Source: Silvanigrellaceae bacterium (GTDB taxonomy: Bacteria; Bdellovibrionota_B; Oligoflexia; Silvanigrellales; Silvanigrellaceae). From it: 64,000 bases of DNA. The DNA lies in the NCBI GenBank assembly GCA_049423385.1, contig JBMSQQ010000004.1:1-64000 (forward strand), in the 5' to 3' direction. Of this stretch, positions 3,365 through 48,886 are shown piece by piece (the first letter of the stretch is position 1; each line of letters starts with the position of its first letter). Below the pieces are notes generated by a model. That model saw only the letters and a program-made list of their open reading frames with translations, was not told where the DNA came from and did not search any database. A program made the translations under genes and the position numbers.

Positions 3365-4474
3365 ATGAATTCAGTCGCCTCATATCAGGCACTTGCATTG
3401 CAAATACGATGCAGAGCCGTGAATGCCTGCCATGGCGTGCCCGAGGCTCGCGAGCTGCTGCGCGCCAACATCGATCGCCTTGCAAAAATGATTCCGGCAA
3501 ACAAGGCATTCATTGGTCCGGCGTGCAAGCTGGTGGTGTTGCCTGAATACGTGCTCACAGGATTTCCGCTTGGAGAATCCTTCTCGCAGTGGCGTGAAAA
3601 GGCCTGCATTTCAGTCGACAGCCCCGAGATGGAATCGCTGTGCCGCATTGCTCAAGACAACAACGTCTACCTCGCAGTGAATGCTTACGAAAAAGAAAAG
3701 CATTTTCCGGAACTGTTTTTTCAGGGCTGCTTTTTGATTTCGCCCGAAGGTCGGGTGGTGTTGCATTACCGGCGCACGAATTCTGTTTTCAGCCCGACGC
3801 CGTTTGATGTGTGGAACAAATATCTGGAAGTTTATGGAGAAGACGCACTGTTTCCTGTGGCTGATACTCCGTTGGGACGCATGGCTTTTGTTGCCAGCGA
3901 CGAAATTCTCTTTCCGGAAGTTGCTCGGATGGCACTGATGAAGGGTGCTGAAATACTTCTCCATCCAACTTCAGAAACCCATTCACCCATTTCCAGCGGC
4001 AAAGACGTTTGCAAACAGGCGCGTGCAGTTGAAAATCTTGCATATGTGATTTCGGCAAACACAGCCGGCATCGAGGGCACACCCGTGTGTGCCGAATCAG
4101 CTGATGGTGGATCGCGGATTGTAGATTATCGCGGTCGCATTCTCGCCATGGCTGGAACAGGCGAAAGCCTGAACGCATTTGCAGAAATTCACATTGCCAA
4201 TCTCCGCGAAGCACGTCGGCAAACCGGTATGCAGAACCTCGTTGCGCGACAACGCTATGGACAATACTCGGAGTTTTATCAGCGGGCTGAAGGTGTTCCA
4301 CCCAATGCTCTTGCTGGTGTGAATGACCCTGGATTGAAGCCTGCTGGAGAATCACATCCGGATTCGGAACCTCAGTTGAAACGACACGTCGAATCCCAAC
4401 CCGGACGTGCACAGCTTTTGGCTTTGCAGCGCGAGACAATTTCGCGCCTGGAAAAGAAAGGCGTATTGCCATGA
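3365..4474 (+). CDS. Nitrilase/carbon-nitrogen hydrolase superfamily protein with non-canonical triad
   Basis: VVLPEY, ADTPLGRM, ARAVENLAYVISAN, GGSRIVDYRG; the Lys and Cys triad positions read R and S. Confidence 0.85.
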   Translation: MNSVASYQALALQIRCRAVNACHGVPEARELLRANIDRLAKMIPANKAFIGPACKLVVLPEYVLTGFPLGESFSQWREKACISVDSPEMESLCRIAQDNNVYLAVNAYEKEKHFPELFFQGCFLISPEGRVVLHYRRTNSVFSPTPFDVWNKYLEVYGEDALFPVADTPLGRMAFVASDEILFPEVARMALMKGAEILLHPTSETHSPISSGKDVCKQARAVENLAYVISANTAGIEGTPVCAESADGGSRIVDYRGRILAMAGTGESLNAFAEIHIANLREARRQTGMQNLVARQRYGQYSEFYQRAEGVPPNALAGVNDPGLKPAGESHPDSEPQLKRHVESQPGRAQLLALQRETISRLEKKGVLP

Positions 4475-5916
4475 TGTTTTCGATTCGCAATCCGCGCACG
4501 GGACTTCAGGACGGCAGCTTTGAAGCGTGTTCTCCTGAAAGCGTGGCAGAAGTTTGCGCAGCTCTGCGTCGTTCGCAATTCGAATGGGAACAGGCCGGCG
4601 TGGTGGCGCGCTCGCAAGGACTGCAAACACTTCTTGACCGTTTGAATGATCCCCGGTGGCGGGAAAAACTTTTTGGCGCCTTGATGAACGACACGGGTCG
4701 CAAGAGCGAAAGCCTCACCGAGCTCACAGGCCTGACCAGCACTCTTCAGCGCTGGATTTCTTATGCGTTTGAAAACGCAGGACTGTGGCAACCCGACTCT
4801 GTTTTTCCCACAGCAATTCCTGGATTCACCCAACAAATTGTCCGCGATGCGACTCCACTCGTTGGGGTCATCAGCCCGTGGAATTTTCCGCTTCTGTTGA
4901 GTTTTGTCGACACCATTCCGGCGCTGCTCGCGGGTTGCGCCGTTGTCATCAAGCCAAGTGAGGTGACGCCACGTTGGGCATTTGTGATGAACGACCTGCT
5001 CGCGACGATTCCTGTTTTGGGCAGCGTGTGTCGCATTGTCGAGGGCGGAGCCGACACAGGTCGAGCCGTTGTTGAAGCCGTGGATTGTGTTTGTTTCACA
5101 GGCAGCGTGGATGTGGGTCGCAAGGTGGCTGCCCGCGCGGCTGAACGATTGATTCCTGCACACCTCGAGCTGGGAGGCAAAGATCCTGCTTTGGTTTTTG
5201 CCGATGCCGATCTCGATTCTGCCGTTCGTTCAATCTTGTGGGGAAGCACTGTGAACGCAGGGCAATCGTGTTTGTCGATTGAGCGTGTTTACGTGCAGTC
5301 AGAAGTATATCCACAATTTATCCACAAAATGCGCTCGATGATTGAAGACATGACCAGCCAATATCCAGTGATGGAATGGATGGCGCCGATCATTTCTCGG
5401 CAGCAGGTCGAAGTGATTGACGATCAATTGCAGGACGCGCGCGACAAAGGTGCCGTTTTTCAGACCGGTGGAACGTGGGAGTCATCGCCACAAGGAACCT
5501 TTTTTATGGCTCCAACCCTGGTGACCAGCGTGAATCATTCCATGAAGATGATGAGCGAAGAGAGTTTTGCACCCTTCATTCCGGTGATGCCTTTTTCCTC
5601 GGAAGCCGAGGCCATTGCGCTCGCCAACAACAGCCCCTACGGACTGAGTGCAGCCGTTTATTCCGCCCAGCCGGAAACTCTCAAAAGAGTTGTGTCAGCA
5701 TTGGACGCGAGTGCCGTGTCGATCAACGACTGCGGACTGACCGCGTTTTTGCATCAGTGCGCCAAGTCGCCGCGCAAGGCGTCGGGTGCGGGTTTGTCGC
5801 GCATGGGTGGCGATGGACTCACGCGTTTTATGCGCAAAAAAGCTTTGTTGAAAAAATCTGCCGCAGAACAGCCGGATCCTTGGTGGTATCCGGTGACTGC
5901 GGTTGCGAAGAACTGA
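4471..5916 (+). CDS. Aldehyde dehydrogenase
   Basis: ISPWNFP, KPSE, FTGS, LELGGKDP, catalytic NAGQSCLS, EESFAP; ATGA overlap with upstream gene. Confidence 0.95.
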   Translation: MMFSIRNPRTGLQDGSFEACSPESVAEVCAALRRSQFEWEQAGVVARSQGLQTLLDRLNDPRWREKLFGALMNDTGRKSESLTELTGLTSTLQRWISYAFENAGLWQPDSVFPTAIPGFTQQIVRDATPLVGVISPWNFPLLLSFVDTIPALLAGCAVVIKPSEVTPRWAFVMNDLLATIPVLGSVCRIVEGGADTGRAVVEAVDCVCFTGSVDVGRKVAARAAERLIPAHLELGGKDPALVFADADLDSAVRSILWGSTVNAGQSCLSIERVYVQSEVYPQFIHKMRSMIEDMTSQYPVMEWMAPIISRQQVEVIDDQLQDARDKGAVFQTGGTWESSPQGTFFMAPTLVTSVNHSMKMMSEESFAPFIPVMPFSSEAEAIALANNSPYGLSAAVYSAQPETLKRVVSALDASAVSINDCGLTAFLHQCAKSPRKASGAGLSRMGGDGLTRFMRKKALLKKSAAEQPDPWWYPVTAVAKN

Positions 5917-5925
5917 CGGGAGACG

Positions 5926-6381
5926 ATGTTGATGTCGATTCAAAAGGAAATGCCGCTGCTTGCTCGTCATGCTGGTCAATGGACAGGAGTTTACACGACC
6001 GTTGATGCCGAAGGAAAAATCATCGATCGCCATGCATCGCACTTGACCTGCGAACTCTCGGATGATCCCAAATTCCCATACAAGCAAACGAACCGGTACA
6101 CATGGGATGATGGAAAAACGGAGGAGCTCTTTTTTCCAGCAACCTATGCCAACAAGAAGATTTGGTTTGAGAGCGAGCGCATCAGCGGCGCTGCCTGGGA
6201 AGCAGACGAAGACACGGTCATGCTGACCTGGAAGCGCAAAGACATTGCCAATTCGAAGTTGGTCGAAATGATTCAACTCAGTTCCGATGGCCTGCGCCGT
6301 TCGCGCACCTGGCATTGGTTTGTGGACGACAAGCTCGTCAAGCGCACATTGATTGAAGAGAACAAGGTGGTGGGCAAATGA
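5926..6381 (+). CDS. DUF3598-like / lipocalin-like beta-barrel protein
   Basis: HAGQWTGVY N-terminal GxW motif, YKQTNRY, RSRTWHWF...RTLIEE; mainly beta-strand pattern. Confidence 0.65.
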   Translation: MLMSIQKEMPLLARHAGQWTGVYTTVDAEGKIIDRHASHLTCELSDDPKFPYKQTNRYTWDDGKTEELFFPATYANKKIWFESERISGAAWEADEDTVMLTWKRKDIANSKLVEMIQLSSDGLRRSRTWHWFVDDKLVKRTLIEENKVVGK

Positions 6382-7136
6382 AGTTGATTCATCCATTGGA
6401 TGCCCTGGGCTACCGCCATAAGTTCGGTGTGCTTGCTCCGAGTACAAACACCATTGTTGAGCCCGATTTTCACCGCATGGCAGTGCCGGGTGTCACTTCG
6501 CACATGTCACGCATCTATATTAAAAACCAGGACATCAGCTCCGACGAGAGGATGCAAGATTTACTCGTTCAGATTCGCGAAGAAATTCTGCGCGCAATTG
6601 ATCTTGTGAAGACCGCTGAAGTCAATTCGCTGGTCATGGGCATGAGCCTGGAAACGTTCTGGGATGGCCTCGAAGGAAACCGCAAATTCGTTGAGCGTCT
6701 CGAAAACTATTCGGGCCTGAAAGTCGCCTCGGGTGCACGCTCGTGCATGGCAGCATTGGACGTTTTGAAGGTCAAAAAGATTGCGGTGCTGACACCCTAT
6801 CAGCCGATTGGTGATGTGAATGTGCGCAAATTCTTTGGTGACATCGGCGTTGAAGTCGTTGCCCTCAAGGGCCTGCGTTGCCCAACGGCTGTATCGATTG
6901 CCCAGGTGGGAGAAGAACAACTGCGCTCGTCACTGATGGAACTGAACGTTTCCGAATGCGAAGCCATCATTCAGGTTGGAACCAACCTCAGCATGTTGCG
7001 CCTCGCAGACGAAGCCGAGCGTTGGTTGGGTAAACCCGTGATTGCCATCAATGCTGCAACCTGGTGGTACGCGTTGCGTAACCAGGGAATCCGCGATCAG
7101 GTCGACGGTTGTGGCATTCTCATGCGCAAATTCTAA
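6378..7136 (+). CDS. Asp/Glu racemase-fold protein (maleate isomerase / arylmalonate decarboxylase family)
   Basis: GVLAPSTNTIVEPD, KIAVLTPY, QVGTNL, LGKPVIAINAAT. Confidence 0.85.
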   Translation: MKLIHPLDALGYRHKFGVLAPSTNTIVEPDFHRMAVPGVTSHMSRIYIKNQDISSDERMQDLLVQIREEILRAIDLVKTAEVNSLVMGMSLETFWDGLEGNRKFVERLENYSGLKVASGARSCMAALDVLKVKKIAVLTPYQPIGDVNVRKFFGDIGVEVVALKGLRCPTAVSIAQVGEEQLRSSLMELNVSECEAIIQVGTNLSMLRLADEAERWLGKPVIAINAATWWYALRNQGIRDQVDGCGILMRKF

Positions 7137-7154
7137 CCACGGGCGGTGCGCGCG

Positions 7155-7799
7155 ATGGCCAATATTCACAATGGATATCAGGGTGTCTTTGACAACCACA
7201 TCCGATGCGGCAAAAAGGCGGCATTGGTGATTGTCGATTTCATCGAGGCCTATGCCGACCCCGCGTCGCCGTTCTTTTCGCCTGAGGTTGTTGAAGCTTC
7301 GCGGGCATTGTTGCCGCTTTTGAATTGTGCCCGCAGTGTGGGTCTGCCGATTGTCTGGACACGCGTTGAATACGCGCATCCTGAAGCTGCCGATGGCGGT
7401 GTTTTTGTCGAAAAAGTTCCGGCACTGAAGAATTTGCGGCGTGGTGCGTTTCATGCACAGACCATGAGTCATCTGGAGCAACGCTCTGCCGAACATGAGA
7501 TCATCAAGAAATTTCCGAGCGCATTTTTTGCCACCCCGTTGGCAAGTCTACTCACGTCATTGAACTGTGACACGGTGTTGGTAGCCGGCTGCACCACGAG
7601 CGGCTGCGTTCGCGCCACGGTGGTCGATGCGCTTCAACATGGGTTTCGCCCATTTGTTGTTGAAGAGTGTGTGGGCGACCGTTCTGCGGAAGCACATCGG
7701 GTCAATCTGTCGGACATGCAAAGCAAATATGCCGAAGTTGTTTCTGCCGCGACCGCTGTGGAATTGATCTTGTCTGCTCATGTGAAGGAGTCGCTGTGA
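7155..7799 (+). CDS. Isochorismatase-family cysteine hydrolase (maleamate amidohydrolase NicF / N-carbamoylsarcosine amidase-like)
   Basis: ALVIVD, KKFPSAFF, TTSGCVRATVVDA: intact D-K-C triad; alternative GTG start at 7146. Confidence 0.88.
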   Translation: MANIHNGYQGVFDNHIRCGKKAALVIVDFIEAYADPASPFFSPEVVEASRALLPLLNCARSVGLPIVWTRVEYAHPEAADGGVFVEKVPALKNLRRGAFHAQTMSHLEQRSAEHEIIKKFPSAFFATPLASLLTSLNCDTVLVAGCTTSGCVRATVVDALQHGFRPFVVEECVGDRSAEAHRVNLSDMQSKYAEVVSAATAVELILSAHVKESL

Positions 7800-8995
7800 G
7801 CAATGCGTTGAATGGTATCCGGGTGCTGGATTTCACCCACATGCTGAGCGGCCCTTATGCCACCATGATGCTCGCTGATTTGGGAGCCGAAGTCATCAAG
7901 ATTGAACCACCCGGAGTTGGAGAAGGCACCCGTCGCTTGTTGGAGAAAGATCCCAACCACAGCATCGATGGCATGGGCGCCTATTTTTTAACGCTGGGCC
8001 GCAACAAGAAGAGCATTGCACTCGACATGAAGTCACCGGGTGCGAAGAAGATTTTTCATGATCTGGTTCGCTGCTCGGATGTGGTTGTTTATAACTTCCG
8101 CGCGGGTGTCGGCGAAAAGCTGGGCCTGGATTACAACCAGCTCAAGCAAGTCAATCCCAAAATCATCACCTGCAGCGTGACGGGGTTCGGCGAGACCGGA
8201 CCCAATCGTGACTGTACGAGCTTCGATATGGTCGCCCAGGCCACTGGCGGCGGCATGACCCTCACAGGTGACGGAGTGAATCCTCTTCGGTCGGGCATTC
8301 CGGTTGGCGACCTTGGTGGTGGACTGATGGCCACCATTGGCATCCTCACAGCTTTGCAGGCGCGCGTGCGCACCGGCGTTGGCCAGCATGTGGATATCTC
8401 GATGCAGGATGCCCAGGTGAGCTTGCTCAATTACATGGCCACCATGACGTCGCTTTCGGGTGAACCTCCCAAGGCCAATGGCAATGCGCATTTTGTGCAT
8501 GTTCCGTATGATTCGTTTCCAACCCGCGACAAGCACATCATCATTGCCATCATCACAGATGACCTGTGGAAGACGTTCATCAAGGCGATCAACATTACTG
8601 CGCTCGACACCGAAGAAAATGCGGGTCAACCCGGTCGCTGGCGCAATCGTGAACACATCAGCCGGTTGTTGTGCGAAACGTTGCGCACCCGAGGATGTGA
8701 AGAATGGCTCGAGATTCTCAGGCCTGCCGGCGTGCCCTGTGCACCAGTGAACGACGTCAATGCTGTTTTGCATGACCCTCATCTGCAAGCGCGAAACATG
8801 ATTGTTGACGTGCCGCACATCAACGGTCGAACCGTGCGTCAGTCGGGCAATCCCATCAAGCTGTCTGCCTCAGGTGTGGATACGTTCTCTCATCCACCCC
8901 AGGTGGGCGAGCATACGCAAACTGTTCTCAAGGACATTCTCAAATATTCGGAAGACGCCGTGCACGACTTGCGCTCGTCGGGGGTGATTCAATGA
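7796..8995 (+). CDS. CaiB/BaiF family (family III) CoA-transferase
   Basis: RVLDFTHMLSGPYATMMLADLGAEVIKIE, RNKKSI, catalytic D in VGDLGGG; GTG start overlaps upstream TGA, AAGGAG RBS. Confidence 0.93.
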   Translation: MSNALNGIRVLDFTHMLSGPYATMMLADLGAEVIKIEPPGVGEGTRRLLEKDPNHSIDGMGAYFLTLGRNKKSIALDMKSPGAKKIFHDLVRCSDVVVYNFRAGVGEKLGLDYNQLKQVNPKIITCSVTGFGETGPNRDCTSFDMVAQATGGGMTLTGDGVNPLRSGIPVGDLGGGLMATIGILTALQARVRTGVGQHVDISMQDAQVSLLNYMATMTSLSGEPPKANGNAHFVHVPYDSFPTRDKHIIIAIITDDLWKTFIKAINITALDTEENAGQPGRWRNREHISRLLCETLRTRGCEEWLEILRPAGVPCAPVNDVNAVLHDPHLQARNMIVDVPHINGRTVRQSGNPIKLSASGVDTFSHPPQVGEHTQTVLKDILKYSEDAVHDLRSSGVIQ

Positions 8996-9933
8996 CATCC
9001 ATTGGTAACGGCCTGCTGCAGTCCGATGTGCCCTTGAAGCTCTGGGAAGTGGGTCCTCGCGATGGCCTGCAGAGTGAAAAGAATATTCTTCCGCTTGATG
9101 CCAAGCGTGACCTTGTGGTCGGCATGATGGAGGCAGGCCTTCGTCACATCGAGGTTGGCAGCTTTGTGCGCGCCATTCCGCAACTCGCGGACACAGACGA
9201 ATTGTTTGCACGCCTGGCAGATCATCCTCTGCGCAAGCAGACGACCCTGACGGGTTTGATCTTCAACGCCAAAGGCCTTGAACGAGCCATTGCGGCCGGG
9301 GTGGATGGCGTTTGTATTGTTGCAATTCCTTCGGACACGCTTTCGCAAAAGAATGCTGGCGTTGGTGCGCAGGAAGGGTTGTTGCGCGCACTCGCTTTGG
9401 TGGATGAGGCCAAAGCTCACAATTTGTTCGTGCGGGTCGATTTGGCGACCTCGTGGGTATGCCCCTTCGAAGGCCAGATGCCGCAGGAAAAGATTTTTGA
9501 ATTCGCCTCGGGGTTGCTCGACAAACCCGGCGTCGATGAATTGGCCTTGGCCGACACCATCGGGCACGCGCATCCACTTCAGGTGTATGCAACCTTTGCG
9601 CGTCTCGCTGAAAAATATTCCATCCAACGCCTGGCAGCCCATTTTCACGACACGCAGGGATTGGCTCTGGCGAACGTCACGGCTGCGATGTCGGCTGGCG
9701 TGCGCATCTTTGATTCTGCCCTGGGTGGTTTGGGCGGATGTCCTTTTGCACCAGGCGCTGCAGGAAATCTCGCGACAGAAGACCTTGTATTGATGGCCCA
9801 GAAATTGAATTCCAATCAGCTCAGGGATGTTTCTCTTTCTGCGCTGTGGACCATGGTTGAAAAATTGGAACAACACATTGGCCGTCCGTTGGGTGGCAGA
9901 AGCCGTGCCTGGTGGAGGAGTCAGTCCAAGTGA
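8992..9933 (+). CDS. HMG-CoA lyase-like / citramalyl-CoA lyase-like (DRE-TIM)
   Basis: EVGPRDGLQSE, HFHDT, GLGGCPFAPGAAGN. Confidence 0.9.
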   Translation: MTSIGNGLLQSDVPLKLWEVGPRDGLQSEKNILPLDAKRDLVVGMMEAGLRHIEVGSFVRAIPQLADTDELFARLADHPLRKQTTLTGLIFNAKGLERAIAAGVDGVCIVAIPSDTLSQKNAGVGAQEGLLRALALVDEAKAHNLFVRVDLATSWVCPFEGQMPQEKIFEFASGLLDKPGVDELALADTIGHAHPLQVYATFARLAEKYSIQRLAAHFHDTQGLALANVTAAMSAGVRIFDSALGGLGGCPFAPGAAGNLATEDLVLMAQKLNSNQLRDVSLSALWTMVEKLEQHIGRPLGGRSRAWWRSQSK

Positions 9934-11354
9934 CGTTTGAGACACCCCGCACATTGCTCGACAAGATTTGGGATTCGGCCACGGTGGTGCGCGAGTCTGC
10001 AGATCATCCTGCCGTGCTGTTTGTCGATTTGCATGTGCTCCACGAGGTGACCTCGAGTCACGCATTTTCGTTGCTCAAGCAGCGTGGATTGAAGGTCAAG
10101 TATCCCGACCGCACGCTCGCTCTTGCCGATCACGCAGTGCCGACCCTGGCACCCGATGGCGACGCGCGTTGGCCCTTTTCAAATCCCGCAAATCGCATTT
10201 CTGTTGAAACACTCGAGCGCAATTGTCGCGAGCAAGGAATTCATTGTTTCGCGCTGGATGACGACAGGCAGGGCATTGTTCACGTTGTGACCCCTGAGCT
10301 TGGACTCACCTGGCCGGGGCAAGTCATTGTTTGCGGCGACAGTCACACCAGCACCCAGGGCGCCTATGGAGCACTCGCCTTTGGCATCGGCAGCAGCGAA
10401 GTTGCCGGTGTGTTGGCAACCCAGACATTGCTGATGAAAAAGCCGCACGCACTGCGTGTTGAACTCAAGGGTTCACGCCTGCCATTTGCCCTGACTGCCA
10501 AAGACATTTCTCTTGCCGTTCTGGCTGAAATCGGAGTCGGAGGTGCACAAGGCGGAGTGATTGAGTTTACCGGCGAGGCGCTGAAACTGCTGTCGATGGA
10601 AGAGCGCATGACGCTGTGCAACCAAAGCGTTGAAGCAGGAGCCCGCACGGCTTTGATTGCCCCAGACGACGTGACCATTGCAGATCTTTCAGCACGTGTT
10701 CGAAACTTCGATAATGCTGACTTTGCGAATTTGATTGATCAGTGGCGCACGCTGCGTTCCGATCCGGCTGCCGTCTATGCACAGACCTGGACCATCGATG
10801 TCGAGTCATTGGCACCGCGTGCCACATACGGAACTCTCCCTGCGCTTTCAATTCCACTGGAAGACACCATTCCTCAGCGTGCACCCGAGTGTTGCGATGC
10901 CGCTCTTTGGCAATCGGGGCTGGCTTATTTCGGATTGAACCCGGGCGACAAATTGCAAGGACTATCGGTTCAGCATGTTTTTTTGGGAAGCTGCACCAAT
11001 GGCCGGTTGAGCGATTTGCGCCAGGCAGCGCGAGTTCTTGAGAACAAGAGAATTGCTCCCACGGTGAAGATGTGGGTCGTGCCAGGCAGTCGTGCGGTGA
11101 AGCGGGCTGCTGAAGCGGAAGGTCTGGATGTAATTTTCCGGAACGCCGGAGCCGATTGGCGCCAACCGGGCTGCTCCCTTTGTGTGGCCATGAACGGCGA
11201 CAGCATTCCTGCGGGTGAAGTGTGTGTGAGCACGAGCAATCGAAATTTTGCTCATCGCCAAGGGCCTGGCAGCAAGACAATTTTGGTGAGTCCCCTGACA
11301 GCTGCAGCAACTGCCCTCAGGGGTGTGCTCACTGATCCGCGTGAGGTGCTGTGA
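9930..11354 (+). CDS. leuC: 3-isopropylmalate dehydratase large subunit homolog (possibly a maleate/alkylmaleate hydratase)
   Basis: HEVTS, CGDSHT, GSCTNGR and GCSLCVAMN Fe-S ligands, STSNRNF; GTG start with GGAGG RBS. Confidence 0.9.
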   Translation: MTFETPRTLLDKIWDSATVVRESADHPAVLFVDLHVLHEVTSSHAFSLLKQRGLKVKYPDRTLALADHAVPTLAPDGDARWPFSNPANRISVETLERNCREQGIHCFALDDDRQGIVHVVTPELGLTWPGQVIVCGDSHTSTQGAYGALAFGIGSSEVAGVLATQTLLMKKPHALRVELKGSRLPFALTAKDISLAVLAEIGVGGAQGGVIEFTGEALKLLSMEERMTLCNQSVEAGARTALIAPDDVTIADLSARVRNFDNADFANLIDQWRTLRSDPAAVYAQTWTIDVESLAPRATYGTLPALSIPLEDTIPQRAPECCDAALWQSGLAYFGLNPGDKLQGLSVQHVFLGSCTNGRLSDLRQAARVLENKRIAPTVKMWVVPGSRAVKRAAEAEGLDVIFRNAGADWRQPGCSLCVAMNGDSIPAGEVCVSTSNRNFAHRQGPGSKTILVSPLTAAATALRGVLTDPREVL

Positions 11355-11983
11355 TGAACGTCAACGGTTGGACTCAATGGAACGGACGCGCTGTGCTGAT
11401 TGCACGCGACAACATCGACACCGACCAGATTTATCCGGGGCGATTTTTGTCGCTCACCAACAGAAGCGACATGGGCGAAGCTTTTTTTGCCGACTGGCGA
11501 TTCGACGAACAAGGCTGTGAGCGCAAAGATCATCCCTTCAGAAAAGAACAAAGCATCATGGTGGCCGGCGAAAACTTTGGCTGTGGTTCGTCGCGCGAGC
11601 ATGCTGTGTGGGTGATGCGCGACCACGGTTTTCGGGTTGTCCTGGCAAGATCATTCGCCCCGATTTTCAAACAAAATGCGATTGCCAACGGTATTGCGCC
11701 TGTTCAGCTTCCGGGCGAAGTATTCACAATCATGAGTGCGCACCAGAATCTTGAATTTGATATTTCAGTTGATCTTGCCTTGCGCTCCTGCACCCTGGTT
11801 TCATGCGATGGCAAAATCAAACGCACTTTTGAATTTGCAATGGAGCCCTTCGACGTTCATTGCCTGCGCCAGGGTGTGGACACCTTGGGCTTTCTGCTTT
11901 CTTGCTCATCAGCAATTGAAAACCATCTGAAGACAACACAACGAATCAACCCTTTGCAGCAATTCTTTTCGGGAGACCAATGA
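11351..11983 (+). CDS. leuD: 3-isopropylmalate dehydratase small subunit homolog
   Basis: DNIDTDQI, NFGCGSSREHA, SFAPIF. Confidence 0.9.
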   Translation: MMNVNGWTQWNGRAVLIARDNIDTDQIYPGRFLSLTNRSDMGEAFFADWRFDEQGCERKDHPFRKEQSIMVAGENFGCGSSREHAVWVMRDHGFRVVLARSFAPIFKQNAIANGIAPVQLPGEVFTIMSAHQNLEFDISVDLALRSCTLVSCDGKIKRTFEFAMEPFDVHCLRQGVDTLGFLLSCSSAIENHLKTTQRINPLQQFFSGDQ

Positions 11984-12921
11984 AAATGAACAGCACGAAT
12001 CGAGGAACATCCCCAATGAACCAGAATCCACTGCCAGCTCCTGCACCGCTGCGTGCAAATCCTCGCACTTCGATTGGCCGCCTCCATGTGGAAAGCGAGC
12101 AGTCGTTGTATTCTGTGGTTGAATTCACAAAGACTGCTTTCAATATCGCCAATTTCATTGGTGGCGATCGCGGCGAAACACAGATTCTTTCGCAGGATGC
12201 TGCGACCGGCGAATCGACCCAGCGCGTGAGCATCAAGAAAGGCTGGAAGGCTCCCATCGGTCATTTCGATACCGATGTGGAAATCTTTGTGCTCAAGGGT
12301 GAAGTCAAGCAAGGCGGATTCAAGCTGCGCCAGTTGTCCTACACTTATCTTCCGGCAGGACTCGCAACCGGACCTTGGGAAGCCAGTGAAGACACGGTGA
12401 TGTTGTTCATGCCCGATCGCAAGCCGAATTACCTGACGGCTCCCTATGCAGACCTCGAGCAGATTCCCGAGAATTCTGCATACCATCTGAACACGCAAAT
12501 GAATGATCGCATGGTGGATTACATTCCGTGCAAGGAAATCAACTCCATGAACTGGGAACAGACGACGTTTCTGCCCCCAGGTTCTGCACGCAAAAGCCTG
12601 TTCAAGTGTCCACGCACCGGTCGTGCGACCTGGATTCTTGGTCTTGTTCCGATGTGGATTGAAGGCAACTTTTTTGCCGGACATCCAACTGCGGAAGAAG
12701 CTTATTTGATTCGTGGCGACGTCCAGGGACACTGGAGCATGCAGGATGATCCGTTCAATCGTCGTTATGCTGCGATGCGTGACGATGGTTATTACTGGCG
12801 TCCAGCTCACATTGCGCATGGACCTTTCTGGTCGGAAAGTGGCGCGCTGTGCCTGTTCCGCACCAAGGACCGCCTCGATTGCCACTGGGCTTTGCACAAT
12901 CCAGACATCACCCAACGCTGA
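11980..12921 (+). CDS. Bicupin / DUF4437-like protein
   Basis: Two cupin-like halves; HPTAEEAYLIRG and YWRPAHIAHGP metal-site motifs. Confidence 0.6.
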   Translation: MKMNSTNRGTSPMNQNPLPAPAPLRANPRTSIGRLHVESEQSLYSVVEFTKTAFNIANFIGGDRGETQILSQDAATGESTQRVSIKKGWKAPIGHFDTDVEIFVLKGEVKQGGFKLRQLSYTYLPAGLATGPWEASEDTVMLFMPDRKPNYLTAPYADLEQIPENSAYHLNTQMNDRMVDYIPCKEINSMNWEQTTFLPPGSARKSLFKCPRTGRATWILGLVPMWIEGNFFAGHPTAEEAYLIRGDVQGHWSMQDDPFNRRYAAMRDDGYYWRPAHIAHGPFWSESGALCLFRTKDRLDCHWALHNPDITQR

Positions 12922-12940
12922 AAGCAGCAAGGAAAATTTC

Positions 12941-14203
12941 ATGGAACGAAAAATTTCTCCCCAAAGCTGGATGATTGTTGCTTGCGGATTTTTGGTGCTG
13001 CTCGTGACCAACGGAATGACCCTCACTGGCATCACGATGTTCGACAACGCCCTGTTGTCCGAATTCGGTTGGCAGCGGGGAGAATTGAAATTGCGTGATC
13101 TCATCACCTTTGCGGGTGCAGGACTCATCGCTCCGTTTTTTGGTTCGCTCGCTGACAAAGGGCACATTCGTAATTGCCTTTTGGCCGGCTGTGTTTTTCT
13201 GGCTGCCGGTTTTTTGGTCTATTCGCGAATCTCCACAATTGGCGGCGTTTATCTGGCGCATGCCCTGTTTGGTTTGTCGTTGGCATCGGCCGGCATTGTG
13301 AGCGTTGTTTTTCTGGTTTCCTCCAACGTGCCAGCCTCAAAAAGAGGGCTTGCTTTGGGGATCGCGCTGGTTGGCTCCAGTCTTGGCAATTCGATTTTTC
13401 CTCAATTCAATCTGGCGTTGCTCAAGGCCTTTGATTGGCGAACTGCATTTGCTTACTTGAGTGCAATTCCGGTCATGTTGATGGTCATGATTGGACTTTT
13501 TTTGAAGGTTCCATTCAGCTCCGTCAAATTGAACGGCGCCACCCCCGAGAATTCTCGCCTGGATCAGAATCTTGTGGGGCGAGGGAATGACGCAGTCGAC
13601 GATCACCCATCAACCAGCGTATTCCGTTCGTGGGCATTCTGGTCGATTGGTATCATTGCAACGCTGACTTTCTTTTCCATACTGGGCGTGACAAGTCATG
13701 TGTTTCTTCGCCTGACGGGTGCGGGATACTCACCACAATTCGCCGGAACGGCTATTGGCATGCTGTTCATGATGGGTTTGGTTGGAAAATTGTTTTCAGG
13801 GGCTTTCGCCGACAAGTTTGGTGTCCGGCTGTTGATGACAGTCTCACTTGCTTTGATGAGTGCCGGCGCCTTCGGTTTGAGCCAGTCGATTTCGGCGGGT
13901 GTTCAGGTCTGGATTCTGCTTTTTGGCTTGGGTTGGGGTGCACTCTACACGCTGATTCAGATGTCGGTCGTCTCGACTTTTGGCAGGATTGGCACGGGGC
14001 GGATCCTTGGAGCCATTGCACTCCTCGAAGCCGTGGGAGGAGGATTGGGACCATGGCTTGTTGGCCTTTTGTACGACAAAACCGGCAGCTATCAGCTCGG
14101 GTTTGGAGTGGTCTGCGGAGCACTCGTTCTTGCCCTGGCAACTTCACTCACCCGAGGAGTCAAGGCGTTTTCTGTTTTGAAGAGTTTCTCTGAGCAGGAG
14201 TAA
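12941..14203 (+). CDS. MFS transporter
   Basis: About 12 hydrophobic segments; GSLADKG and GAFADKFG motif A repeats; YDKTGSY; AAGGA upstream of ATG 12941. Confidence 0.9.
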   Translation: MERKISPQSWMIVACGFLVLLVTNGMTLTGITMFDNALLSEFGWQRGELKLRDLITFAGAGLIAPFFGSLADKGHIRNCLLAGCVFLAAGFLVYSRISTIGGVYLAHALFGLSLASAGIVSVVFLVSSNVPASKRGLALGIALVGSSLGNSIFPQFNLALLKAFDWRTAFAYLSAIPVMLMVMIGLFLKVPFSSVKLNGATPENSRLDQNLVGRGNDAVDDHPSTSVFRSWAFWSIGIIATLTFFSILGVTSHVFLRLTGAGYSPQFAGTAIGMLFMMGLVGKLFSGAFADKFGVRLLMTVSLALMSAGAFGLSQSISAGVQVWILLFGLGWGALYTLIQMSVVSTFGRIGTGRILGAIALLEAVGGGLGPWLVGLLYDKTGSYQLGFGVVCGALVLALATSLTRGVKAFSVLKSFSEQE

Positions 14204-14206
14204 GAC

Positions 14207-15142
14207 TCACTGCTGTGGACATTCTCCACCGGCCTGCGACGCCGATTCCGCGACGGGGAAGAGTTCTCCGCGAAGATACGCATCGAAATTGGTCTTGAAA
14301 TAAGTCCAGCTCGAAACATTGGCGCGGCCTGAAACGACACACCGGGGTGCATCGAGGTACAGCTCGAGATCGGAAGTTGTCATCCGACGCTTGACGAGCT
14401 CCGGCAGTGGCTGATTTGCCGAGTGTTTTTGGACAATCGCATTGAACACCAGATTTCCGCTGGCTCCCTTCATTTTCATCCACGGAAGCCAGGGGCTCAC
14501 GCGGGTCCAAACCACCTGCACGTCATCAATCGACTCAACTTCACCAATTCGCGCAAGCGCTTCATCAGCAATGACGTATGAGAAGGATTCGTGCGCCTTG
14601 TATATTGCTTCGGGTGAATATTCGGCGAAACGAGCATCACCAGCAAGCGGATTCGGATAGCTCAATGGAACGTCGATCCTCAGAATTGAGGTTTTGCTGT
14701 TCGATTCAACCGGCAATGCTGCCACGGCCGGTATTTTTTGTTGAACAAGTGCATTGGCAATATGAACAACCGGGACGGTTTCTTTGGTCCAGGGATTTTG
14801 CCATTTGTCGAGCATTTCGCCCGTGGACGGATCAAGGTAAAAAGTCAATTCGCGTGATCCGACAGTCCAATTTCCGTTGTCGTCTTTGAAGCAGCGGGCA
14901 ATGTTGTAACCAACGATCTTGAACAAGACTTGGCTCTTGTCTGATGCGACCCCGGTGGTTGTGACATTCCCATGCCAGCTCGTGATGGCATTCTGGCCGT
15001 TGGTGTTGCAGCGGATTTTCATGAAATCATTGGCGCCGAGACTCGATGTGCCCGCGTGTGCGGGAATTGAAAACGTGCTGGCTGCAGCAACAGTTGCGGA
15101 GAACATGGTGAATCTGCGAGTCAAAAGTCGGTTCAAGTTCAT
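14207..15142 (-). CDS. DUF1838-like exported protein
   Basis: Signal peptide (RRF, possibly Tat); RELTFYLDP, WQNPWTKETVPVVHIAN, YPNPL, WTRVSPWLPWM motifs as recalled for DUF1838. Confidence 0.7.
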   Translation of the reverse strand: MNLNRLLTRRFTMFSATVAAASTFSIPAHAGTSSLGANDFMKIRCNTNGQNAITSWHGNVTTTGVASDKSQVLFKIVGYNIARCFKDDNGNWTVGSRELTFYLDPSTGEMLDKWQNPWTKETVPVVHIANALVQQKIPAVAALPVESNSKTSILRIDVPLSYPNPLAGDARFAEYSPEAIYKAHESFSYVIADEALARIGEVESIDDVQVVWTRVSPWLPWMKMKGASGNLVFNAIVQKHSANQPLPELVKRRMTTSDLELYLDAPRCVVSGRANVSSWTYFKTNFDAYLRGELFPVAESASQAGGECPQQ

Positions 15143-17259: not shown

Positions 17260-17868
17260 TCACTGCTCTCCAATCTCCTCCGAAGCACCCCGTTCGACTC
17301 GCCCTTCGCTGGGTGCGCTTTTCCGACGCCACTGGCCCGAACGTGCATAAGGTTCGCGTTGTGGATTTGCGGGAGGGTTTCGTGCCGGCAGCAAGCCCAG
17401 TTTTGACAAATGTTCATGAAGCGCGACAGGCGAGAGTTTCGTCAGGTTGGCGTCAAGGTCGTTTACACGGAGCTTCCTGTACAGTTCGCCTGGCAATGAA
17501 TCCCTGAGTTCTCCGAGAACCTTTCTGTCTGCTGCCAAAACAACAGCTTCCACATTGAATTCCGAGACGAAATTGAGGAGTTTTTCGCTGATCTCCCGGC
17601 TGAATCTTTTGACGATTTCATGCTGATGACGGCTCAAATGATCATCGTATCCATGCATCGTCTGCGCCATTCCGGAGAACCCGACATGATATGAAAACCG
17701 ATGACCTCCTGCGAGGGTTTCGTTCTTTTGTTCCTGCCAATGTTTGTTGAGGAACAGTTCAACCGATGACAATACCGGACTCCATTGTTCACCAGGACGT
17801 TCAGCAGATTTTAGAATCAGAAACCGGGCTTTTGTGTGATCGACAGTCAACACGGCGACCTGCTTCAT
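17260..17868 (-). CDS. Host attachment family / release-factor-like (baeRF) protein
   Basis: N-terminal VLTVDHTKARF, VVLAADRKVLGELR, NLTKLS pattern. Confidence 0.65.
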   Translation of the reverse strand: MKQVAVLTVDHTKARFLILKSAERPGEQWSPVLSSVELFLNKHWQEQKNETLAGGHRFSYHVGFSGMAQTMHGYDDHLSRHQHEIVKRFSREISEKLLNFVSEFNVEAVVLAADRKVLGELRDSLPGELYRKLRVNDLDANLTKLSPVALHEHLSKLGLLPARNPPANPQREPYARSGQWRRKSAPSEGRVERGASEEIGEQ

Positions 17869-18099
17869 GGTTTACCCCTTGACGACTGTGAATTGTGGAT
17901 TCTTTTCCGGGCCCGACTCTTTCCCGATGGTCCTCCATTGCAAAATCATAGCTTTGTGATGGGCTTTGAAAATCATGGATTTCTTGGACATTCGAAAGAT
18001 CTTTTTGGCTCGATGTCCATTTCGCTGACATGGATCATCGGGTCGTCTTTGTTAAACTCGGCTTGCGATAAATTTTCGAAGAAAGCTTTGGAGGTTTTC

Positions 18100-19854: not shown

Positions 19855-19867
19855 AAGGAAGTTTGCC

Positions 19868-20890
19868 ATGGGCGTTTGGGCTGCGTCCGCAACAATGATG
19901 TTGCTTCCTCCACCGGATGCAACGCACATTCGCCACAACATGCCCAATACTTTTTCCAGACAGGCCGATGCGAGTGCAATCCGAGTGCCTGTCGGTCCGA
20001 ATGCCCTGCCAGTGATTGGCGCCAATCGACTGTTCACAAAAGACGAATTCAATCAGCTCTGGTCTACATTCTTTTCAAGCCCAATCAACTCGCCAGACTG
20101 CGGCAAACCTCTTGATTTGAAGGGGAGCGATCGAAAGCTCATTGCTGAGGATCTATTTCTCGTAAAGCTTCGAGGTTTCCGCGAGTCCATCTGCAATCCG
20201 GAATCCTGGTACATTTCTGCCATGAGAATTGATCCCTGTCGCATCAGGGTACTCAAGGAAAATCGTTCCAGGTCGGCAATCAAGTCGTGTTCGATGAATG
20301 GAAAATTCCAGGAATTGAGATTTGTTTTGCAGCCGGTCGAAAACACGGATCGTGGGCTTGTCTTCCCGGATGTTGCTCTGCATGTCGCCTTGAGTTTTGG
20401 CAAGTTTGAACAAATTCTCAAGGTTTGGCGCGACGCGCGTCCCGAAAAAATTGTCTCTGCGGCGCGTCGCCTGGGAGTCTGGAACGACGTGGCACTTTTT
20501 CTCGGTGGTGCAGGCCTTGAGCGGTGGACGTTTTCCCGGGTGAAGTTCGTTGAAGGGAAATGGCAACAGGATCGTCTCGCACACGGAGGATTCCATGAAT
20601 CCTTGAGTGATGCCGAAGCCGATGGGACCAGCGTTCAGACCGACAGGCCTGCGGACGAGCCGCGGCTCAGCGACGTTCAACTCATGAATCCAATGCTCAT
20701 CAATCCCCTCCAGGGAAGTTGCATTCAGTGCCATCTGGCAGACAAAAACAGACCTGTTCGCGTGTTCCGGCAGTTGGGCTGGGGGCTTTCCGGCGAACCC
20801 GTGGTATCTGCAAGGGTTCTGAAGGAATCGCGATTTTCTGCAAGCGAACTCAATATCATTGGCAATGGCAAGTCTCCGAAGCAGCGCTGA
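19868..20890 (+). CDS. Hypothetical protein with a single CxxCH motif
   Basis: CIQCH near the C-terminus; 13 bp downstream of the previous gene. Confidence 0.7.
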   Translation: MGVWAASATMMLLPPPDATHIRHNMPNTFSRQADASAIRVPVGPNALPVIGANRLFTKDEFNQLWSTFFSSPINSPDCGKPLDLKGSDRKLIAEDLFLVKLRGFRESICNPESWYISAMRIDPCRIRVLKENRSRSAIKSCSMNGKFQELRFVLQPVENTDRGLVFPDVALHVALSFGKFEQILKVWRDARPEKIVSAARRLGVWNDVALFLGGAGLERWTFSRVKFVEGKWQQDRLAHGGFHESLSDAEADGTSVQTDRPADEPRLSDVQLMNPMLINPLQGSCIQCHLADKNRPVRVFRQLGWGLSGEPVVSARVLKESRFSASELNIIGNGKSPKQR

Positions 20891-20994
20891 AAGTGTCTAA
20901 AAGTTCTACAGTTCAGGCACGTTTTTCTTCTTGCCCCCACCTGTATTCACCTCTACCTGCTCCTCAGCGATTGCTCATGATGTTTGGAAAATAA

Positions 20995-33637: not shown

Positions 33638-33820
33638 GAATACCAAAGTCCAGGATGGATGATTATGGCCGTCTGTTTCAATTTGGGAAGAGTTTGGTGT
33701 CTTTGAATTGAACTTGACAGCGGGAGAGGTTTGTCCTGTTTTGAGGAAGGGCAGACAAAATGCAGTTCTCCGCAAGGAAATGCGGTCCTGCTTCCGGTTC
33801 TTTTTTTCATTGGGAAGCGC

Positions 33821-48694: not shown

Positions 48695-48886
48695 TGGTTT
48701 GTTCCTTTCCCACCAACGAACGTCCCTGTTTTCGGAACATTTCCGACCCTACAAAAGAAAAATTTAAATAAAAAAATTAAGTCTATATTTTTCCGTATAT
48801 TGCCCGATAATTTGCTGCTTGGACATTCACCGGGAGGATGTGTGCCGGCACCGAATGGAAATTGCACAATCCGTGCATTCGAAAAG

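Follow-up and report, generated by a model that had tools for sequence, protein, structure and literature searches.

The closest described systems belong to several pathways. Besides the NicF/NicE maleamate branch, LeuCD-type hydratases are known for maleate (HbzIJ) and dimethylmaleate (DmdAB), as is a citramalate/citramalyl-CoA lyase route. Cyclic imides and hydantoins are processed by enzyme sets that combine an imidase or hydantoinase with a half-amidase or carbamoylase and a racemase. The petal death protein, a member of the PEP mutase/isocitrate lyase superfamily, has 2-alkylmalate/oxaloacetate lyase activity. Regarding the RCCR of the plant PAO/RCCR (phyllobilin) pathway, the part consulted of one source calls it a streptophyte innovation (PMC9306834), and in the part consulted of another the bacterial relatives serve merely as an outgroup (PMC10151467).

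Organisation and conservation of the operon

The window (the whole stretch of DNA that was analysed, 64,000 nucleotides) has 11 co-oriented genes, g01 to g11, on the + strand at positions 3365-14203. According to the ORF listing and the inspection of start codons, adjacent genes either overlap by 4 bp or lie no more than 19 bp apart. The host of the eleven-gene operon is a freshwater bacterium. All 11 genes are present in identical order in three congeners (G009, G007 and G005), the gene order of a fourth (G010) matches up to the end of its contig, and a near-identical genome (G012/L009) keeps the 11 genes and their order. Identity among congeners is 92-96% for g04 and 92-94% for g10. Because the order recurs in all these genomes, the set is more than chance, and the 11 genes form one real, conserved operon. 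The ORF listing and the synteny in four congeners agree with the preliminary description of this DNA, which had reported 11 co-oriented, tightly joined genes; the genes, whose failure to co-occur in other genomes would have counted against it, were found in the same order in G009, G007, G005, G010 and G012, and every family name it gave was confirmed by Pfam and NCBIfam.

A convergent DUF1838 gene (g12, 14207-15142, - strand; PF08894, 232 bits in Pfam), which encodes a twin-arginine-like signal peptide and ends 3 bp from the stop of the MFS gene g11, had also been counted in the set. DUF1838 is found in 11 of the 13 genus genomes, including four that lack the cluster (G001, G002, G004 and G011), and is therefore not cluster-specific but part of the chromosomal backbone; in genus genomes without the cluster it is accompanied by VWA and methyltransferase genes. 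One cyanobacterial cluster (L126) contains a 36%-identical homolog. Overall, g12 is probably a neighbour outside the pathway.

Genes of the operon and of its companion

Genes g01 to g04 and g10 have cyanobacterial counterparts at 48-72% identity. The product of g01 (3365-4474) belongs to the formamidase/aliphatic-amidase branch of the CN_hydrolase nitrilase superfamily (PF00795, 113 bits in Pfam), and all its scores against NCBIfam equivalogs are far under the cut-offs. Alignment with solved formamidases and amidases puts Ser178 in place of the nucleophile Cys and Arg137 in place of the catalytic Lys. The Lys site is Arg in 121/121 sequences and the Cys site is Ser in 120 and Thr in one, a correction to the preliminary description. 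Another such correction concerns g04 (6378-7136, ATGA overlap with g03), an Amdase/maleate-isomerase-like member of the Asp/Glu-racemase superfamily (PF17645, 64.8 bits in Pfam). A profile search retrieves maleate isomerases at 2e-11, whose Cys sites correspond to Val86 and Gly201 of g04; these sites are V/I and G in 121/121 sequences, in which Ser90, Glu92, Thr202 and Asn203 are likewise invariant. The maleate isomerase of the preliminary description thus lacks both catalytic cysteines, and a canonical maleate isomerase is ruled out. Because the catalytic residues of their families are missing, the chemistry of g01 and g04 is unreadable from homology.

Between them, g02 (4471-5916, ATGA overlap with g01) encodes an NAD(P)-dependent aldehyde dehydrogenase (PF00171, 333 bits in Pfam) that keeps the ELGG and GQSC motifs and reaches no NCBIfam equivalog at cut-off, and g03 (5926-6381, 9 bp after g02) encodes a DUF3598_N protein (PF12204, 37.8 bits in Pfam). 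The AlphaFold model of g03 (pLDDT 92.5) is a calycin-like, 10-stranded beta-barrel, for which Foldseek returned BFA1 and a Nostoc DUF3598 protein, followed by Ycf58 (3bdr, 8e-6), the S-type bilin lyase CpeS (4tq2, 3e-5) and nitrobindins. The modelled fold is close to those of S-type bilin lyases and heme-binding nitrobindins; Foldseek also matches it to proteins that are not tetrapyrrole binders, namely an ATP-synthase assembly factor, FABP-like proteins and spirocyclases. The g10 product (11980-12921, ATGA overlap with g09) is a ChrR-cupin-like DUF4437 bicupin (PF14499, 70 bits in Pfam), probably metal-dependent, whose nearest solved structure is an uncharacterised Nostoc protein (2qdr) and whose homologs with 60-72% identity come almost exclusively from cyanobacteria.

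The lower genes are more conventional. Starting 9-18 bp after g04, g05 (7146/7155-7799, two candidate starts) encodes an isochorismatase-family Cys amidohydrolase of the NicF/N-carbamoylsarcosine-amidase-like type (PF00857, 113 bits in Pfam); the motifs of the Asp-Lys-Cys triad are intact in the translation. Among solved structures, 26st (N-carbamoylsarcosine amidohydrolase, 7e-38) and 3ot4/3uao (1e-37) are nearest to it, so that it is equally close to N-carbamoylsarcosine amidase and to NicF-type structures. The family III CoA-transferase g06 (7796-8995, GTGA overlap with g05; PF02515, 393 bits in Pfam) keeps the GDLGGG motif, and its top NCBIfam match is succinyl-CoA:mesaconate CoA-transferase (293 bits, under the 700-bit cut-off). 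The HMG-CoA-lyase family member g07 (8992-9933, ATGA overlap with g06) passes the cut-off of PRK05692 in NCBIfam (263.7 against 246 bits) and keeps RDG, HxH and GGCP. A [4Fe-4S] hydro-lyase is encoded by g08 (9930-11354, GTGA overlap with g07), a LeuC-like large subunit with the cluster-ligand motifs GSCTN and GCSLC (PRK12466 in NCBIfam, 597 bits, over the 531-bit cut-off), and g09 (11351/11354-11983, two candidate starts), a LeuD-like small subunit (in NCBIfam, PRK01641 at 167.1 bits against a 167-bit cut-off and TIGR00171 at 139.6 bits, over 116). At the end, g11 (12941-14203, 19 bp after g10) is an MFS transporter of the lactate/oxalate-formate/monocarboxylate type (PF07690, 134.6 bits in Pfam), with the L-lactate MFS transporter as top NCBIfam match (111.6 bits, under the 320-bit cut-off), and presumably takes up an organic acid. 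With the catalytic motifs of g05 to g09 intact, the route proposed earlier, from amidase through hydratase and CoA-transferase to lyase, is coherent.

Since g08 and g09 exceed the NCBIfam cut-offs of LeuC and LeuD subfamilies, the LeuCD and HMGL-like genes might be assigned to ordinary leucine metabolism. However, in the genome, about 9% of which is unassembled, the only leuA matches are two HMGL-like genes (27 and 20 bits), and nothing scores over the leuB cut-off. LeuC of either type is absent from the six genus genomes without the cluster, where aconitase stands alone, with no LeuC-like g08. Because the genome is without leuA and leuB over cut-off, LeuCD is not biosynthetic; it is accessory, neither housekeeping nor leucine-related. 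The leucine role, against which the preliminary description had set its proposal, is contradicted, and we give it almost no credence.

A companion operon co-occurs with the cluster. Its order is HMGL2-LeuC2-LeuD2-CoAT2 followed by an allantoinase/hydantoinase-like amidohydrolase, and it is located on contig C78 in G000, and in G007 it diverges directly from g01. There are two paralogous LeuCD sets, one of the bacterial LeuCD type and one of the HacA/archaeal type. The companion amidohydrolase is found in 8 of the 131 phylum genomes, seven of which are among the eight that bear g10, and is 64% identical to a cyanobacterial amidohydrolase encoded next to DUF4437. Its best models are allantoinase, hydantoin-5-propionate amidohydrolase and dihydropyrimidinase, all under cut-off. 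The lower module (g04-g05-CoAT-HMGL-LeuCD) is reused as a unit: in G060, G065 and G099 it is combined with different upper genes (FAD monooxygenase, Rieske oxygenase, ALDHs, ACAD and thiolase), and a Tistrella plasmid has g04, CoAT, HMGL and an isochorismatase together.

LeuCD, a family III CoA-transferase and an HMGL-type lyase would also suffice to convert citraconate via citramalate and citramalyl-CoA to acetyl-CoA and pyruvate. The substrates could then be nitrogen-free branched C5/C6 dicarboxylates (citraconate, mesaconate or itaconate-type), the amidase-fold genes hydrolysing no amide, which fits the mesaconate CoA-transferase match of g06 and the lost nucleophile of g01. Nevertheless, the g05 triad is intact, g05 is kept beside g04 across families and a cyclic amidohydrolase accompanies the cluster, and we consider such substrates very improbable.

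Neighbours with a possible tetrapyrrole link in related genomes

Immediately upstream of g01, 7 of 18 cyanobacterial loci have a gene of the RCC_reductase family (PF06405, 81 bits; cut-off 24.9 bits), located 42-137 bp from the g01 homolog and co-oriented with g01-g02-g03. Among 301 sampled cyanobacteria, g01 occurs in 19, the RCCR family in 14 and both in 8, against about 0.9 expected by plain arithmetic on the 301 genomes; as these genomes are related to one another, the locus counts overstate independence. No RCCR-family match was obtained in eleven of the 19 cyanobacteria with g01, and six that carry the family lack g01. In the phylum of the window the family is found in 2 of 131 genomes (G065 and G099), both with the g04 cluster, and in the heterotroph G065 it forms one co-oriented string with HMGL2-LeuCD2-CoAT2-amidohydrolase. 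The gene is absent from the window genome and from the congeners G007 and G009. Next to g10 or g03 lies a PaO-type Rieske gene in some loci (5/49 and 1/18, respectively), and 4 of 67 examined cyanobacterial loci contain a lyase with the petal death protein as best solved relative (9e-74). The 138 neighbour ORFs of g10-based loci include neither an RCC reductase nor a heme oxygenase, a bilin reductase, a bilin lyase or a TonB receptor.

Of the linkages by which the preliminary description proposed to check its pigment-fragment substrate, that to RCC reductase is therefore seen in 7/18 cyanobacterial loci and in G065 but not in the window genome, and those to heme oxygenase, bilin lyase and TonB receptor do not appear among the 138 ORFs. 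The RCCR, PaO-like Rieske and petal-death-protein-like neighbours in relatives lend support to the still hypothetical tetrapyrrole-fragment idea; the window genome itself has no RCCR gene. We tentatively suggest, at somewhat less than an even chance, that the feedstock may be mono- or dipyrroles formed in the breakdown of linear tetrapyrroles (chlorophyll catabolites or bilins), such as alkyl-maleimide or pyrrolinone acids, which would enter via the MFS carrier g11.

The cyanobacterial loci also raise the idea of a biosynthetic cluster, with a HisRS-like paralog, found next to g03 in 11 of the 18 loci, as resistance or activating gene and with SnoaL-like and other tailoring-type genes nearby. 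The operon of the window has no synthetase, PKS or NRPS core and no HisRS-like gene, ends in an uptake-type MFS carrier and contains CoA-transferase and lyase genes typical of degradation, making biosynthesis extremely improbable.

Catabolism of a monocyclic N-heteroaromatic acid (pyridine/pyridone, nicotinate-like) is unlikely, yet deserves more weight. Here g10 would be a ring-cleaving dioxygenase replacing NicX, g01 a deformylase-like step and g05 a maleamate amidase, with maleate passing via D-malate and malyl-CoA to glyoxylate and acetyl-CoA. The proximity of g05 to NicF-type structures, the nicE-nicF-like adjacency of g04 and g05, the group-A FAD monooxygenase adjoining g04 in related clusters and a PnuC/NadR-like pair inserted beside g10 in one Anabaena locus are consistent with it. 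On the other hand, Pfam and NCBIfam find no NicX-, NicD-, NicC- or NicAB-type genes in the cluster, bearing out the earlier statement that nicotinate upper-pathway genes are lacking; g04 cannot be a canonical maleate isomerase; and neither the RCCR-family and PaO-type linkage nor the duplicate hydratase/lyase sets are explained.

A cyclic ureide, hydantoin or dihydropyrimidine-type substrate also fits, because the top solved relative of g05, which is as near to N-carbamoylsarcosine amidase as to NicF-type structures, is N-carbamoylsarcosine amidohydrolase, and the models closest to the companion amidohydrolase are, all under cut-offs, those of allantoinase, hydantoin-5-propionate amidohydrolase and dihydropyrimidinase. 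The amidohydrolase would be a hydantoinase, g04 a racemase-like helper, g05 and/or g01 decarbamoylases and g10 an aminohydrolase comparable to ureidoglycine aminohydrolase, itself a bicupin; a racemase fold, a cyclic amidohydrolase and a bicupin are combined in the allantoin pathway as well. This is improbable, however: g04 is without the racemase cysteines and g01 without the carbamoylase Cys and Lys, two LeuCD/CoA-transferase/HMGL-lyase sets would not be needed, and the RCCR-family linkage is left unexplained.

Proposed route and comparison with known systems

Judging from gene content, the operon may be catabolic for an imported, nitrogen-containing unsaturated organic acid, which we put at just short of an even chance. 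Its lower pathway probably consists of imide opening, amide hydrolysis, hydration, CoA activation and C-C cleavage. The companion cyclic amidohydrolase would hydrolyse the ring of a cyclic imide or lactam, giving a half-amide, g05 would strip the amide nitrogen off the maleamate-type compound, g08/g09 would hydrate the cis double bond to a 2-substituted malate, g06 would form the CoA thioester, and g07 would split this in a retro-Claisen reaction, yielding a 2-oxo acid together with an acyl-CoA. A differently substituted acid, possibly with a carboxyalkyl chain, may be the substrate of the second hydratase/transferase/lyase set. In the upper pathway, g01 (Ser/Arg nitrilase fold), g02 (ALDH) and g03 (beta-barrel) could take part in converting a precursor to the intermediate, and g04 (Cys-less racemase fold) and g10 (bicupin) would likewise prepare it from a larger precursor. 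Such a route, removing nitrogen from a ring-derived unsaturated acid and passing its carbon to central metabolism, looks undescribed, and no cluster of LeuCD, CoA-transferase and HMGL coupled to amidases was found in the literature. If the proposal is true, the final fate of chlorophyll and bilin pigments could become testable.

As in the NicF/NicE maleamate branch, an isochorismatase-family Cys amidase adjoins an Asp/Glu-racemase-fold gene in an operon, and a cis-butenedioate half-amide is presumably the source of the released nitrogen. In contrast, g04 is without the isomerase cysteines, NicX, NicD and NicC are missing, and the acid would be hydrated, CoA-activated and cleaved here instead of isomerised to fumarate. 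The two-subunit Fe-S hydro-lyase, family III CoA-transferase and HMGL-family lyase are shared with the HbzIJ/DmdAB/citramalyl-CoA route, whereas two paralogous sets coupled to amidases are particular to this system. Cyclic-imide and hydantoin sets likewise join an amidohydrolase of the allantoinase/hydantoinase/dihydropyrimidinase group to an amidase and a racemase-fold protein, but here the racemase-fold and nitrilase-fold members lack catalytic residues and the set is coupled to hydratase, CoA-transferase and lyase steps. The petal death protein has a relative in cyanobacterial clusters that could take the place of g06 and g07 in a CoA-independent manner, although it is absent from the operon of the window. 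Relatives of the cluster share with the plant PAO/RCCR pathway RCC_reductase-family and PaO-type Rieske genes in the locus, though the window genome has no RCCR-family gene; the plant route stops at linear tetrapyrroles, whereas the genes described here would act further on.

Layout and conservation of the operon

The operon is composed of 11 co-oriented genes on the forward strand (g01-g11, 3365-14203), joined by ATGA/GTGA overlaps or by gaps of 9-19 bp, and agrees with the tight gene set of the preliminary description, its order being kept in congeners. Pfam and NCBIfam models assign g01 to CN_hydrolase, g02 to aldehyde dehydrogenases (with the catalytic motifs ELGG and GQSC), g03 to DUF3598_N, g04 to the Asp/Glu-racemase fold (Amdase/maleate-isomerase-like), g05 to isochorismatase-family hydrolases, g06 to family III CoA-transferases, g07 to the HMG-CoA-lyase (HMGL) family, g08 and g09 to LeuC and LeuD-like proteins, g10 to DUF4437 bicupins and g11 to MFS carriers of the lactate/oxalate-formate type. 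The convergent DUF1838 gene (g12, 14207-15142) ends 3 bp past the stop codon of the MFS gene. Upstream lies tyrS, and downstream are a VWA gene and an OlsG-like methyltransferase gene; no regulator is adjacent to the cluster, and the remainder of the window has no genes related to it. A promoter/terminator scan gave no more sites than shuffled sequence, and the sole promoter-like match lies across the start codon of g01. Elsewhere in the window, three large ORFs past the methyltransferase (672, 340 and 1,145 aa; 17836-24432) match no Pfam family, though synteny with congeners extends over the first two, and a gene for an AurF-like di-iron N-oxygenase stands beside an 841-aa AMP-binding enzyme/UbiA prenyltransferase fusion (47714-51178).

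The cluster is conserved and accessory, and it is not for leucine. The identical 11-gene set and order was found in the congeners G005, G007 and G009, in G010 until the contig ends, and in the near-identical G012 (locus L009), so that the genes do co-occur in other genomes. The bicupin gene g10 is present in six of the 12 other genomes of the genus, and in eight of the 41 relatives searched, including the window's own genome (G000). Identity between congeners is 92-96% for g04 and g10, against 53-85% for the flanking genes. The DUF1838 gene, which had been counted with the set, is part of the chromosomal backbone: 11 of the genus's 13 genomes have it, including four cluster-less ones, always beside the VWA and methyltransferase genes, and its membership is largely rejected. 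The only hint of a functional link is the cyanobacterial locus L126 (G202, contig C8), in which the homologs of g01 and g02 have a DUF1838 homolog (36% identity to g12) between them. At the DUF1838 site of the cluster-less congener G001 (locus L072, contig C8, about 10300-12200 of the locus) are a possibly truncated HMGL-like gene (67% identity to g07) and an isochorismatase gene (41% to g05), a remnant that suggests loss of the other cluster genes.

Lower-half enzymes and the altered folds of g01 and g04

Regarding the lower half, the family assignments of the preliminary description for the CoA-transferase, the HMG-CoA-lyase-like enzyme and the LeuCD-like pair are confirmed, with intact motifs. 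The CoA-transferase g06 has the GDLGGG motif and scores 393 bits with its Pfam family; against the named family III equivalogs (mesaconate, glutarate, formyl-CoA, oxalate) its best score is 293 bits, the cut-off being 700. The lyase g07 passes the HMG-CoA lyase model PRK05692 (263.7 bits, cut-off 246) and keeps RDG, HFHD (HxH) and GGCP, which we take to be the metal and catalytic residue motifs. The LeuC-like g08 exceeds the cut-off of PRK12466 (597 against 531 bits) and the LeuD-like g09 that of TIGR00171 (139.6 against 116). Both g08, with GSCTN and GCSLC, and its paralog LeuC2 retain the three Cys ligands of the Fe-S cluster.

A role of LeuCD in leucine biosynthesis was considered and rejected. 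In G000, which is 90.6% complete, there is no leuA (the search matched just the two HMGL-like genes, with 27 and 20 bits) and no leuB match over cut-off; six cluster-less genomes of the genus have aconitase only and no LeuC of either type. Across the genus, the distribution of LeuCD tracks the cluster.

The amidase g05 has the isochorismatase fold (PF00857, 113 bits) and the motifs of the Asp-Lys-Cys triad, as expected of a NicF-type amidase. Its best solved relatives are the N-carbamoylsarcosine amidohydrolase 26st (7e-38) and 3ot4/3uao (1e-37), the latter presumably NicF, followed by 4l07 (6e-29), presumably another maleamate amidase like 3ot4/3uao. The score gives no preference between carbamoyl and maleamate types, 26st matching as strongly as 3ot4/3uao. 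A pyridine-type substrate, to which the likeness to NicF would be suited, is a serious alternative; the NicAB, NicC, NicX and NicD families are absent from the cluster and from the rest of the 64-kb window, as had been claimed for the nicotinate upper pathway. The carbamoyl-type match is in keeping with a second serious alternative, a ureide/hydantoin-type substrate, and 3ot4/3uao stand beside it at equal strength.

Two proteins of the operon have lost the usual catalytic residues of their folds. The first, g01, has the CN_hydrolase fold (PF00795, 113 bits) and matches solved formamidases and aliphatic amidases at 1e-16 to 1e-14, and its Glu-Lys-Glu-Cys nitrilase set is incomplete, Lys and Cys being missing. 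In alignment with three solved enzymes, Glu61 is kept, Arg137 stands at the catalytic Lys and Ser178 at the nucleophile Cys; among g01 and its 120 best homologs, Arg is found in 121 of 121 sequences, and Ser in 120 with one Thr. The second, g04, has the Asp/Glu-racemase-superfamily fold expected of the maleate isomerase that it had been called (PF17645, 64.8 bits; profile matches of 2e-11 to 7e-11 with the isomerase structures 4fq7 and 2xec), but both cysteines are lost. Gly201 aligns to the Cys replaced in the mutant entries 4fq5 and 2xed, and Val86 to the second Cys of the solved maleate isomerases, which we take to be the second catalytic one. As all 121 sequences have both sites replaced (by V/I and by G), g04 is no maleate isomerase by the canonical mechanism, and the NicE/MaiA assignment was rejected. 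Ser90, Glu92, Thr202 and Asn203 are invariant in the 121 sequences. The g04 family is large, with 7,630 proteins at E <= 1e-10 among 8,000 scored.

A second operon accompanies the first. In G007 (contig C197, locus L070) it directly adjoins g01 in divergent orientation, in the order of a 334-aa gene without assigned family, HMGL2, LeuC2 (HacA/archaeal type), LeuD2, CoAT2 (a second CoA-transferase) and a cyclic amidohydrolase; the same genes from HMGL2 on were found in G000 up to the end of contig C78 (locus L069, about 6600-12050). The LeuD2 loop reads Y-T-K-T, where homoaconitase small subunits presumably have Y-L-R-T. The best models for the amidohydrolase are allantoinase, hydantoin-5-propionate amidohydrolase and dihydropyrimidinase, the kind of match that a ureide or hydantoin substrate would lead one to expect, and all are under cut-off. 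The phylum is small (131 species genomes), and eight of its genomes have the amidohydrolase, seven of these being among the eight g10 carriers.

The lower module also occurs in combination with other upper genes. In G060, G065 and G099, which belong to other families of the same class, g04, g05, CoA-transferase, HMGL and LeuCD genes form one operon together with a group-A FAD monooxygenase, two ALDHs, an ACAD-like gene, a Rieske oxygenase, an alpha/beta hydrolase and a thiolase; in G065 the companion operon is 3.5 kb from the g04 operon. A Tistrella plasmid has g04 (52% identity) with CoA-transferase, HMG-CoA lyase and isochorismatase genes, and a Thioclava plasmid has it with FAD monooxygenase and isochorismatase genes. 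Plasmid-borne g04 homologs with no more than 48% identity were left out of this comparison because of their mixed surroundings (rutA, peptide ABC transporters).

Cyanobacterial homologs and RCC-reductase relatives

The upper genes are common to the window organism and cyanobacteria. Only 60 homologs of g10 were found at E <= 1e-10 in a large protein collection, the named ones mostly cyanobacterial, and the 51 genome loci obtained with it are nearly all from Nostoc, Calothrix, Scytonema, Pleurocapsa, Symploca and similar genera (60-72% identity). In the 49 loci analysed, the neighbours are a SnoaL-like gene (27 loci), a 161-aa gene of unknown function (25), g04 at 63-71% identity (21), an Asp/Arg-hydroxylase-like gene (21), a cyclic amidohydrolase 64% identical to that of the window organism (20), alpha/beta hydrolases (18), g03 (10), g02 (5), a PaO-type Rieske gene (5) and g01 (3). 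Fold and atlas searches with g10 returned only generic bicupins and 2qdr. When cyanobacteria were sampled evenly by means of g01 (301 genomes, E <= 1e-60), 19 genomes had it; 18 loci were taken, with g02 in all 18 and g03 in 16 in conserved synteny. A HisRS-like putative paralog (about 462 aa, with tRNA-synt_His and anticodon domains) adjoins the g03 homolog in 11 of these 18 loci (L117-L134), and was also seen in L016, L018, L021, L040 and L051.

A gene of the RCC reductase (RCCR) family lies directly upstream of g01, in the same orientation and at gaps of 42-137 bp as measured from match coordinates, in seven of the 18 loci, and its product matches PF06405 with 81 bits (cut-off 24.9). The family is rare, found in 14 of the 301 cyanobacterial genomes and in none of 14 control genomes. 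Both genes occur in eight of the 301, against about 0.9 expected by our own arithmetic, and in one of these genomes they are far apart; g01 without the family was seen in 11 genomes, and the family without g01 in six. The RCCR-g01 module is contiguous to an amidohydrolase/DUF4437/SnoaL module in loci that include L125, L128 and L130. In the window's phylum, the family was found in exactly two of 131 genomes, G065 and G099, both among the 11 g04 carriers. The gene in G065 shares 48% identity with its cyanobacterial counterpart and lies six genes beyond HMGL2-LeuC2-LeuD2-CoAT2-amidohydrolase in the same tight co-oriented string (L136, contig C193, 17641-22832). The ORFs between that amidohydrolase and the RCCR gene, and just after it, match none of the compared loci; several of the five without family have an N-terminal G-x-W-x-G...D-x-x-G motif, g03-like, and hhalign found no significant relation of them to the g03 profile.

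The linkage to RCC reductase suggested in the preliminary description thus holds in the relatives but not in the window organism, as PF06405 has no match in G000, G007, G009 or any other of the 13 genus genomes. It appeared only with locus sampling by g01 and not in the screen by g10, in which RCC reductase, heme oxygenase, bilin lyase and TonB receptor genes, identified by Pfam, were absent within 5 kb from 138 of 156 neighbour representatives. Around g01, two of the 18 loci (L129 and L130, in G250 and G169) have an AcsF-like rubrerythrin-fold gene, a heme oxygenase and HemN within 1-3 kb.

Four cyanobacterial loci (L022, L051, L118 and L130) have a PEP-mutase/isocitrate-lyase-family gene whose best solved relative is the petal death protein (PDP; 9e-74, the next 7e-55), which we take to be a lyase for 2-ethyl-3-methylmalate and oxaloacetate; in L130 it adjoins the RCCR-family gene. 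Sequence searches with g03 and g12 against solved structures gave nothing useful. The g03 model is a 10-stranded barrel (pLDDT 92.5). Among solved structures the DUF3598 proteins come closest to it, followed by Ycf58 (8e-6), CpeS, a phycobiliprotein lyase of the S type (3e-5), and nitrobindins, which bind heme; the fold also matches proteins not binding tetrapyrroles. One study brings in bacterial RCCR relatives solely to serve as outgroup for the bilin reductases (PMC10151467), and another regards RCCR as an innovation of the streptophytes and notes PAO homologs among cyanobacteria (PMC9306834).

A candidate catabolic funnel and its possible substrate

A catabolic funnel is the best-supported mechanism for the operon. 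The hydantoinase-like enzyme would open a cyclic imide or lactam, g05 would hydrolyse the half-amide, LeuCD-type enzymes would hydrate the cis-unsaturated dicarboxylate, and the product would be activated by the CoA-transferase and split by the HMGL-type lyase, with two paralogous hydratase/transferase/lyase sets perhaps serving differently substituted acids. The feedstock would most likely be a linear-tetrapyrrole breakdown product, on the basis of the linkage in relatives, the fold resemblance and the chemical fit. As the window organism has no RCCR-family gene, it may take up products that are already fragmented. Concerning its lifestyle, a deaminase like Bd3614 and numerous peptidases of secreted type (M23, S8 with PA14, M10-like and M48) are also encoded in the window (ORFs at 55889-56584, 45304-46146, 57866-60079, 12-926 and 33731-34732); these genes and the lack of leuA and leuB suggest a Bdellovibrio-like or otherwise amino-acid-dependent life.

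More tentatively, and with rather less than even confidence, we propose that the operon is the heterotroph version of a new pathway, also present in cyanobacteria, which would take linear tetrapyrroles derived from chlorophyll or bilins past the phyllobilin/bilin stage. RCCR, PaO-type enzymes and g01-g02-g03-g04-g10 would break the tetrapyrrole up and trim it down to acids of the pyrrolinone or maleimide type, and g01 and g04 would add new catalytic variants to the nitrilase and racemase folds. The hydantoinase-like imidase and then the NicF-like amidase would release the nitrogen, and the two LeuCD/CoA-transferase/HMGL-lyase sets would mineralise alkyl- and carboxyalkyl-maleates, a PDP-like lyase possibly replacing them in cyanobacteria.

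We found no published account of this gene set. The locus and its relatives bring into view three DUFs (DUF4437, DUF3598_N and DUF1838) and two conserved families with altered catalytic residues, a Ser/Arg nitrilase fold and a Cys-less racemase fold; bacterial RCC-reductase relatives, which are without an assigned role, are also in the gene set. To our knowledge, the fate of chlorophyll and bilins past the linear tetrapyrrole, including the recycling of four nitrogens and about 30 carbons, is a long-standing gap. In the literature surveyed, the only known products are those of chemical oxidation, for example maleimides and hematinic acid (e.g. PMC7318184). With this locus and the related ones, the fate of these pigments can be approached through a definite set of genes, whose lower-pathway steps can be assayed with available compounds. 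Even if the substrate is another N-heterocycle, the amidase-hydratase-CoA-transferase-lyase funnel would represent a new means of disposing of maleamate-type intermediates.
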